Shown one piece after another: positions 12,218-19,401 of a stretch of 19,401 bases of DNA. Position 1 is the first letter of the stretch; each line of letters begins with the position of its first letter. The translations under genes and the position numbers were made by a program. The stretch comes from an uncultured archaeon (GTDB taxonomy: Archaea > Asgardarchaeota > Jordiarchaeia > Jordiarchaeales > Jordiarchaeaceae): NCBI GenBank assembly GCA_964510585.1, contig CAZECW010000169.1:1-19401 (forward strand), written 5' to 3'. The notes under the pieces are model-generated. The model did no database searches and was not told where the DNA came from. It was given only the letters and a program-made list of their open reading frames with translations.

Positions 12218-12337
12218 TTTAAACCACCTTACATTCAAATATTTGATAGAATTACAACTATGTCTCATATATTCTTATTGATAAAAAATAGGCTACCCCT
12301 TTTAAATCCAGAATTTTTTAGTAGTGGAAAAAGGGAA

Positions 12338-12515
12338 TTGACACTCTCCGCGACTAAAGTCGGGAGATTCTTGCTTCTGGCTCATCGGGAGCCTTCGAAG
12401 CAATGGGTGTGCCATCACCCAGTTAACACGCCCTTCCCTTAAGGGAACGGCGTCTATGTTGGCACCCTCATGGGGGCTGCGTCTTGTTTAGCCTCTTAAG
12501 CCCAAGCCAAACCCT
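12338..12515 (-). ncRNA. Putative TnpB omegaRNA (reRNA) scaffold; predicted guide is the flank 12337-12318; 5' end approximate
   Basis: Hairpins at 12428-12453, 12404-12421 and 12371-12403 plus the right-end hairpin, ending at TCAA; TATA-like motifs upstream. Function inferred from position and structure. Confidence 0.55.
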
Positions 12516-12530
12516 TCAGCTACCAACAAC

Positions 12531-12563
12531 TATTTATATACCATACTTTCAAATAAACTTTCT
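12531..12563 (-). promoter_or_regulatory. Candidate BRE/TATA promoter(s) inside the mini element, directed toward the right end
   Basis: AGAAAGTTTATTT (12563-12551) and TATATAAATA (12540-12531) on the minus strand. Confidence 0.45.
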
Positions 12564-12612
12564 GGCGATTCATCCCCACGACTAAAGTCGGGGGCTTTCT
12601 CACCAAGGTTTT

Positions 12613-12920
12613 GTAACAAGAGATTTTGGTGCTTCCTTAGCTACTCTTCTGGTTATAACTCCAGTTGCACCTGCAAGCAAACTCTCTCCCTTCGTTGCAC
12701 CATAAACCCAAGCATCCTGCGAGGGATATTTTTCCACCAAACTTAGTAAGGCGCTTTCCAATTCGTCTACCGTATTGCATTTTCTATCTAGCTGGAATTT
12801 TTCCTGAGCATACCTGCTGGCATGCTCCAAAAAGAGTTTCAACACTGCGGGAGAAGTCAGTGGTTCATACCGATACGCATCGGCAATAGCTCTAACTATC
12901 CTCTCATTTCCAACAGGCAT
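12613..12920 (-). pseudogene. Hypothetical protein gene interrupted by the mini element; remaining 3' part at 12337-12265
   Basis: ATG at 12920 with GGGGTG RBS and TTTATATA upstream; ORF runs into the element at GTT AC|A AAA CCT TGG TGA; removing the element gives a 126-aa ORF. Confidence 0.7.
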
Positions 12921-18310: not shown

Positions 18311-18489
18311 ATGAGTGAACTTAAAATCACTAATTCGGGGATAAATTTTCTGGATAATTTGTTGGGTGATGGATTCTTATCCAATTCTATTATTGTTATT
18401 TCACACCAGCCAGGCTCTAAAATTCGCCATCTAGGACTACAGATAGGATTAAACAAGTTCAATGAAAAGTTTCACCTGATCAACGTTAC
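18311..18489 (+). pseudogene. 5' part of a RAD55/KaiC-like (RecA-fold) gene interrupted by the IS
   Basis: SGINFLDNLLGDGFLSNSIIVISHQPGS resembles the TGIxxLDxLLGGG...GxPGSGKT N-terminus; frame enters the IS at AAC GTT AC|A. Confidence 0.7.
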
Positions 18490-18587
18490 AAAACCGTTGG
18501 CGGGAAAGCCCCCGACTTCAAGTCGTGGGGATGAATCGCCAAAAAGCTTATAGGCTGGTATATTGATAGATTTATGGTTATCAATAG

Positions 18588-18977
18588 ATGGAATACAGAC
18601 ATTCTCGAAACCAAGTCTATCCCATCAACTACCACCTCGTCTGGCGCCCCAAGCGCAGAAAGCCAGTCCTCGTAAACGAGGTAAAAATGCGGCTGGAGCA
18701 AATCCTGAGAGAAGCAGCAAAGGAGAAGGACGTGGAAATCCCGGCGCTAGAAGCGCAACCAGACCACCTTCACCTGTTCATGTCTGCATATCCCCAACTT
18801 CCAGCCCACAAGCTCGTCAAGGCATTCAAGGGCCACTCGTCTCACCACTTAAGAAGGGAGCTCCCCCACCTGCTTAAGCTTCCGTCACTTTGGACGAACT
18901 CATACCTCTTTTCGACAGCGGAGAACATGTCGAACAAAACCATTCAGAAATACATCGAAACGCAGTCGAGGCTGTGA
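18588..18977 (+). CDS. tnpA: IS200-type Y1 (HUH) transposase, possibly decaying
   Basis: NYHLVW.PK, PDHLHL (HUH), LWTNSY, KYIETQ (catalytic Tyr...Gln). Confidence 0.93.
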   Translation: MEYRHSRNQVYPINYHLVWRPKRRKPVLVNEVKMRLEQILREAAKEKDVEIPALEAQPDHLHLFMSAYPQLPAHKLVKAFKGHSSHHLRRELPHLLKLPSLWTNSYLFSTAENMSNKTIQKYIETQSRL

Positions 18978-18979
18978 AA

Positions 18980-19401
18980 ATGAAGCGTACAAACACGTTT
19001 GCACTCGCCCCAACGAAAAAACAACACAGGCAGCTGTCGGAGATCGCAGATGCATGCGCCCGACTGTGGAACGAACTTAACTATCGTCGCAGGCAATCTT
19101 TCTTCAAGGGCAAGATCAACTGGGAGAGCCGCGACCTCTACAACAAGTATAAGGGTATAGTGGGCTCCGCAACCGCCCAGCAAATCCAGAGGAAGAACAA
19201 CGAAGCCTGGAAATCGTTCTTCGCCCTACTTAGACAAAAAGCCGAGGGAAAACTCCCGCCACACACACAAAAGGTGGCACCGCCGCGCTACTGGAAGGAT
19301 TGGAAGAAAGGAAAGCGGAAGCTCTTGATTCTAATCAGGCGCGACTGCTATAGGATGGAAGCGGGCATCCTGAAGCTCCCCTCGAAACTGAAAGTAAAGT
19401 G
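18980..19401 (+). CDS. tnpB: TnpB RNA-guided nuclease, N-terminal 140 aa (partial; absent from the supplied ORF track)
   Basis: My translation: MKRTNTFALAPTKKQHRQLSEIADACARLWNELNYRRRQSFF...GSATAQQIQRKNNEAWKSFF...PPRYWKD...; archaeal IS605 OrfB type; starts 2 nt after the tnpA stop. Confidence 0.92.
   Translation, partial: MKRTNTFALAPTKKQHRQLSEIADACARLWNELNYRRRQSFFKGKINWESRDLYNKYKGIVGSATAQQIQRKNNEAWKSFFALLRQKAEGKLPPHTQKVAPPRYWKDWKKGKRKLLILIRRDCYRMEAGILKLPSKLKVK

Follow-up and report, generated by a model that had tools for sequence, protein, structure and literature searches.

The stretch of DNA analysed here (the window, 19,401 nucleotides) is the whole of contig C169 of the archaeal assembly G000, which comprises 3.78 Mb in 217 contigs. 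Its end, positions 18490-19401, holds an IS605-type tnpA-tnpB element with ends of the IS608 type. The element interrupts a gene for a KaiC-like tandem ATPase of 521 residues, whose first 59 codons remain at 18311-18489 on the forward strand, as do all parts of the element. The TTAC tetranucleotide at 18486-18489 is host DNA, the cleavage site CL of TnpA and the predicted TAM of TnpB. It is followed by the left end (18490-18540), which includes the guide AAAG at 18505-18508 and a subterminal hairpin at 18509-18530. An archaeal BRE/TATA-like sequence at 18540-18554, picked out by eye, may be the tnpA promoter; a scan with a sigma-70 promoter model, not applicable to archaea, returned no match. 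Downstream lie tnpA (18588-18977), encoding a Y1 HUH transposase of 129 residues (PF01797, E 9e-35; NF033573 over its cut-off), and the first 140 codons of tnpB (18980-19401), where the contig terminates. The window shares no end overlap of at least 21 nt with any other contig, and an attempt to join it to one was abandoned.

The interrupted gene has an intact orthologue in G004, 93% identical, with weak matches to KaiC profiles and with TTAC exactly at the element junction. Within G000 the gene picks up again at an IS605 right end on contig C8 (C8:367 onward), 908 nt downstream and at a second TTAC; the 908-nt stretch between the two TTAC sites is missing from the assembly, in which the smallest contig is 1697 nt. 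The C8 end is either the right end of the window copy after a deletion or part of a second insertion, in which case the spacer would sit on a contig too small to pass the size cut-off. Pattern scans of the metagenome gave no match for the C8 flank and 31 for the window flank, all unrelated. KaiC-like tandem ATPases form an expanded, clustered paralogue family in the genus, with 13 matches in G005 (contig C1, about 3.14-3.27 Mb).

About 6 kb away, on the reverse strand, lies a gene-less mini element of 275 nt (12338-12612), one of some 80 copies in the genome; complete copies show a median identity of 96%. It has both IS605 ends, has no protein gene and occurs in multiple dispersed copies, as expected of a PATE. 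Its TTAC target is at 12613-12616, and the corresponding empty alleles are found in G001, G003 and G004. The left end (12550-12612) contains AAAG at 12595-12598, a hairpin at 12574-12594 and a BRE/TATA-like sequence at 12550-12564. An omegaRNA-like scaffold merges with the right end at 12338-12453, as judged from fold energy (z -4.9) and pair counts, and consists of helices P1 (12428-12453), P2 (12404-12421) and P3 (12371-12403), with the loop of P2 pairing with the terminal TGTCA to form a pseudoknot. Right-end motifs are the guide GAAT at 12367-12370, a hairpin at 12345-12367 and the terminal TCAA at 12338-12341; the predicted flank-derived guide of the mini RNA is 12318-12337. Nucleotides 55-165 of the mini find no match in the full elements and a single relic in G004.

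The mini truncates a host gene of 217 residues, of which the 5' part remains (12600-12920, reverse strand) and which is intact in G001 and G004. The continuation of this gene adjoins the right end of another mini, on contig C160, while the right flank of the window mini follows TTAC at another locus in G003. Because its two flanks correspond to different insertion sites in relatives, the window mini is either a recombinant or an assembly mis-join, and its guide may thus be foreign to the left end seen here. The right flank also occurs in eight other assemblies, every one of which breaks off within the mini and leaves the left flank unreadable. Other apparently complete minis, on C160, C58 and C12, also join flanks of different insertion sites; these mixed flanks arose either by recombination among copies or by an assembly error across the repeat.

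Three further sets of short elements were observed. Shorter minis of the same family, 200-270 nt, occur in G004 (L124-L130, L136) and G003 (L131), and in them the scaffold follows the left-end promoter with hardly any sequence between. A second gene-less family of 330-335 nt (L122 on C107 and L123 on C58 of G000, also C21, C32 and C162) has the TTAC target, the AAAG guide and the same pseudoknot, with a longer P3. A multi-copy palindromic repeat of about 140 nt (C121, C20, C90, C112, C21, C7 and others) is unrelated to the mini.

The sequence-only reading had cast the window element as a probable helper of this mini, on the grounds of their matching left ends, and the match itself is exactly as it described. 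Global alignment of 18490-18540 with 12612-12564 gives 46 identities in 51 columns, and local alignment extends the similarity patchily through the promoter-like region to about 18569, with TGGTATAT in common. BLAST of the two ends returns 82% identity over 90 nt (E 6e-17), a level that argues against chance. Both ends are also preceded by GTTAC. The match is not special to the pair. The genome holds 80 mini and 9 full left ends, together with 62 right ends of minis and 4 intact ones of full elements. Of the 80 minis, 58 align with the end at 18490 at 47-50 of 51 positions, better than the neighbour at 12612. Nor does the short distance carry the meaning given to it: a mini end lies within 5.9 kb of 18% of random positions, and the probability that at least one of nine full copies has a mini neighbour this close is about 83%. 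The proximity of the two elements is a coincidence, at chance-level distance.

The two elements belong to one family of the IS605 group of IS200/IS605, with IS608-type ends and represented by about 9 full and about 80 gene-less 275-nt copies. Complete full copies were found in other assemblies (L159, L160, L161, L205 and L207), and L159 shares its left flank with contig C71 of G000 at 100% identity. These copies tie a left end, tnpA and tnpB of the window type to the right ends seen on C8, C45, C54 and C152 of G000 (96-100% identity). Every feature of the IS605 group open to checking was found: the HUH motif and catalytic tyrosine, tnpB, paired guide and cleavage sequences, and a target that is not duplicated. 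The ends have subterminal hairpins with AAAG/TTAC and GAAT/TCAA pairs, no terminal inverted repeats, and exact copies of the four IS608 motifs.

Three lines of evidence establish TTAC as the TnpA target. It stands directly 5' of the left end in 88 of 88 copies; at fixed offset, positions -4 to -1 read T in 87, T in 88, A in 84 and C in 84, and in the four deviating copies the left end is shorter by one base, with TTAC kept. The same target is predicted independently from the left guide AAAG by the IS608 rule. Empty alleles in relatives end in TTAC, both for a full element (G004) and for the mini (G001, G003 and G004). Left and right flanks abut in the empty sites of the C49-C22 and C58-C19 pairs, without target duplication.

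In L159 and L160, tnpA is followed by a tnpB of 393 codons whose product scores above the cut-off of NF040570. This intact frame is known from the other assemblies, none being assembled intact in G000. Residues D190, G283, E331 and D365 are invariant in 14 homologues, and alignment to Cas12f places a glycine at the canonical RuvC-II glutamate position. By a naive check for D-E-D this TnpB would be called inactive, a conclusion rejected because an alternative glutamate, E331, is invariant; intact family copies thus have the complete RuvC triad that the sequence-only reading had asked to see, with its glutamate rearranged. In G000 the catalytic residues are read from C7 (the first D) and C8 (E and the second D), outside the part of tnpB in the window. 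By its aligned residues the protein has the TnpB2/RIIr-5 arrangement. An AlphaFold2 model of the 393-residue protein (pLDDT 81) has Cas12f, TnpB (8iaz, 8h1j) and Fanzor2 as its best Foldseek matches, and the predicted fold resembles that of Cas12f/TnpB. The closest named relatives of this TnpB (79-84%; L021, L022) are in tnpB-only elements of Hadarchaeota genomes, which suggests transfer between archaeal groups.

The right ends and scaffolds of the full copies proved to be related to the mini region 12338-12515. The 3' 193 nt of the mini fold with a z score of -4.9, and the resulting helices are those of the full right end. In a set of 16 related ends, pairing holds for 90.3% of cells and both sides have changed in 11 of 31 pairs; none of 500 shuffles reaches this pairing and slid controls give 38-53%, comparisons that are inflated by deriving the structure partly from the same sequences. 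In P1 the mini and the full element differ in both partners of the pairs A-U/G-C, C-G/U-A and U-A/C-G. The pseudoknot motifs are kept in 61 of 62 mini right ends, with pairs so nearly invariant that they are weak structural evidence; a loop-to-terminus pseudoknot is a described feature of archaeal omegaRNAs (PMC12558985). An Rfam search matched the scaffold to no family.

Because the scaffold is common to minis and full elements, with compensatory changes, a TTAC-like TAM and use of the mini RNAs in trans are plausible on comparative grounds. The healthier copies of the IS605-type family are likely the helpers of the gene-less minis. TnpA from intact copies elsewhere would move the minis in trans by peel-and-paste, and transcription from the retained left-end promoter would yield scaffold RNA of about 190 nt together with flank. 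TnpB may load these RNAs in trans and cut TTAC plus guide at empty donor joints, where recombination would restore the element. The sequence-only reading had proposed that this TnpB serves two guide RNAs; the family would instead have its own RNA and those of about 80 minis to deal with. An IS605 family that serves minis in trans, with a TTAC-type TAM and a decayed copy in the window, is the best explanation as a whole, to which we give a probability of about 0.65.

It is possible, though we consider it unlikely, that the minis travel purely as DNA passengers, mobilised by TnpA, and that their scaffold is never used by TnpB as a guide but is kept by recent amplification or as a structure in single-stranded DNA. 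The youth of the copies (median identity 96%) would agree with this, as would the existence of an uncut site with TAM and guide: G000 has one uninterrupted TTAC plus perfect-guide site (C154, about position 2119) for the mini at C12:8955, and this site is 98% identical to the right flank, and so the guide, of that mini. In a population assembly, an uncut site is weak counter-evidence to guide-directed cutting. Guide seeds of 8 nt preceded by TTAC number 42 against 50 expected, not a significant difference in an underpowered test. Against passengers stand the two-sided changes in P1, far from the hairpin that TnpA binds, and the retention of the same scaffold by the separate shorter minis of G004 and G003.

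A different partner protein for the minis is possible: over its terminal 42 nt the mini resembles an element on contig C81 (39 of 43) more than the C8 right end (35 of 42), and the C81 element also follows TTAC. This second TnpB2 element (L121, C81:5075-6700 of G000) has an open tnpB frame of 424 codons, about 45% identical in product, with D, the rearranged E and D; the base of P3 of the mini is also closer to C81. That C81 mainly serves the mini RNAs is nevertheless unlikely, since the left end, promoter and P1 region of the mini match the window family and not C81, which occurs only once and whose tnpA is frameshifted.

Within the preferred reading, in which healthier family copies serve the minis, the window copy is probably an old, decaying member rather than a working helper. 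The sequence-only reading had proposed it as the active helper of the neighbouring mini. For this it can be said that tnpA and the visible part of tnpB are open in this assembly, that HLH (residues 60-62) and Tyr122 are present, and that this tnpA is one of only two unbroken frames assembled in G000. The encoded TnpA, on the other hand, has six private substitutions, L12P, C20R, L52P, R83H, F92L and V108F, at columns at least 95% conserved. None is seen in 111 homologues, which have 0-3 such changes each, and by this comparison the window TnpA is probably degraded. Damage is found in other full copies of G000: the tnpB of C7 and the tnpA of C15 and C162 are frameshifted, and C7 has L12P and C20R in common with the window.

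The open tnpB start also appears doubtful. Six other assemblies of the same insertion have a stop (TAG) at tnpB codon 18, position 19031, where the window is open. Up to 18960 the window is nearly identical to these six (99.4% for the three compared by BLAST), whereas beyond about 18965 it is 91-94% identical to them and 97.7% identical to a different copy. The window thus switches haplotype near 18965 and, because the later sequence follows the different copy while the other assemblies have the stop, an assembly switch or gene conversion probably explains the open start. With proximity at chance level and with TnpA and TnpB acting in trans, it is improbable that the window copy is itself the active helper. 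An open frame at a contig end should be read with caution, as it may be an assembly switch.

That the TAM is GTTAC, the extension the sequence-only reading had drawn from the two window flanks, is scarcely credible: a few other copies share the G, 9 of 88 in all, and in empty alleles it is host sequence. Position -5 of the 88 left ends is T in 51, C in 16, A in 12 and G in 9; compared with genomic NTTAC, T (58%) is enriched (p 4e-4) and G, at 10% against 18%, is rarer if anything (p 0.07). GTTAC is refuted for the TnpA target, and the case is a caution that two flanks alone can yield a false motif. We consider a TAM with a TTAC core fairly probable. The TAM equals the TnpA target for ISDra2 and SisTnpB7, the latter with NTTAA (PMC11043419), and SfaTnpB recognises TTAC/NTAC (PMC12781874). 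Because measured TAMs (SfaTnpB, SisTnpB7) are looser than the TnpA target, the flank logo only approximates the TAM, for which we would expect TTAC or a relaxed NTAC rather than GTTAC, perhaps with a mild preference for T at -5.

The closest known parallel in end anatomy is IS608 of Helicobacter pylori (PMC5934647), with the same TTAC target, AAAG left guide, TCAA cleavage site and GAAT right guide, tnpA and tnpB between subterminal hairpins, and empty sites without target duplication. The present family differs in its archaeal host, in the tandem, same-strand order of tnpA and tnpB, and in its rearranged-glutamate TnpB. In population structure it resembles ISGst1-5 and the PATE-like elements of Geobacillus stearothermophilus (10.1101/2023.03.14.532601), where few tnpA genes and many non-autonomous copies have common ends. 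It differs from these in that the gene-less form dominates (about 80 copies to 9), the host is archaeal and several right ends are split by IS110. TvTnpB of Thermoplasma volcanium (TnpB2/RIIr-5; PMC10530073, PMC10691335) also has glycine at the RuvC-II glutamate position, an alternative glutamate about 48 residues downstream and an archaeal IS605 context; the likeness is one of residue arrangement, and the TAM of TvTnpB is TGAC, unlike the TTAC predicted here. Its rearranged TnpB2 cuts DNA (PMC10530073).

The core claim repeats published biology, namely that the TAM follows the TnpA target and that PATEs or stand-alone omegaRNAs act in trans. For SfaTnpB (PMC12781874) and SisTnpB7 (PMC11043419) the TAM was predicted from the insertion site and confirmed (TTAC/NTAC and NTTAA). 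Gene-less elements often encode stand-alone omegaRNAs used in trans by a TnpB encoded elsewhere (PMC10691335), and trans use of such RNAs has been stated by Meers et al. (10.1101/2023.03.14.532601) and Altae-Tran et al. The family offers a well-defined archaeal TnpB2, a candidate compact nuclease whose predicted TAM is TTAC, and some 80 natural guide cassettes as a test set for trans-guide use.

A further layer was found at the right ends of the full copies. An IS110 element of 1.4 kb (L206:1004-2416, reverse strand) has inserted five bases from the tip and so split the right end of a full copy in three other assemblies. In G000, nine contig ends (C19, C22, C26, C36, C98, C100, C102, C137 and C184) carry an IS110 end with the displaced tip, each with a different flank; a search of the assembly, contig ends included, found no free copy of the other IS110 end. 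In the empty sites of relatives, two of the IS110 flanks are matched to left ends of full elements (C42 and C49) and a third to the left end of a mini (C58). Independent IS110 insertions at chance sites were rejected as an explanation, with the other end missing from contig ends and empty sites without TGTCAA. An IS605::IS110 composite that moves as a unit is possible.

The leader of the IS110 contains TTGACACT and CGTGGGGA, which match the two halves of the IS605 right-end site, and leader segments also match both donor halves. A relative in G004, 80-90% identical, has TAACCACT at the same place in the leader and inserts at TAACC-like sites; its two right junctions that were read both lie outside IS605 ends. 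That the leader segment co-varies with the insertion sites supports a candidate bridge RNA that may be aimed at the IS605 right end. When IS110 inserts there, the element's cis guide RNA loses its pseudoknot strand and its guide junction.

These observations lead to a tentative extension of the preferred reading, a three-way system that we think somewhat unlikely as a whole, in which an IS110 bridge RNA is reprogrammed to the IS605 right end, full copies are guide-less and TnpB uses the minis. IS110 would cut off the pseudoknot strand, the guide junction and the terminal TCAA of full-length tnpB copies; the split copies would become immobile protein donors without a guide RNA of their own, and TnpB would work mainly on the RNAs of the roughly 80 minis. 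Other IS110/IS1111 elements are known to target sites in mobile elements, such as IS4321/IS5075 at Tn21 repeats, and attC and REP (PMC11187229, PMC11208160). What they have in common with the present case is an RNA-guided IS110 directed to a site that recurs in mobile elements. The target differs, being here an IS605 right end, at the point where the scaffold of a TnpB omegaRNA meets its guide, and a literature search found no report of IS110 targeting an IS605 right end. If the proposal is true, one RNA-guided element is directed at the gene for another's guide RNA, a finding of relevance to the ways in which TnpB is disarmed by hosts or by competing elements. Among uninterrupted right ends in the genome, 72 are of the GGAGAG type and 5 of the GGGGAG type that matches the IS110 guide; the mini right-end variant GGAGAG mismatches that guide, and minis with it may partly escape IS110.
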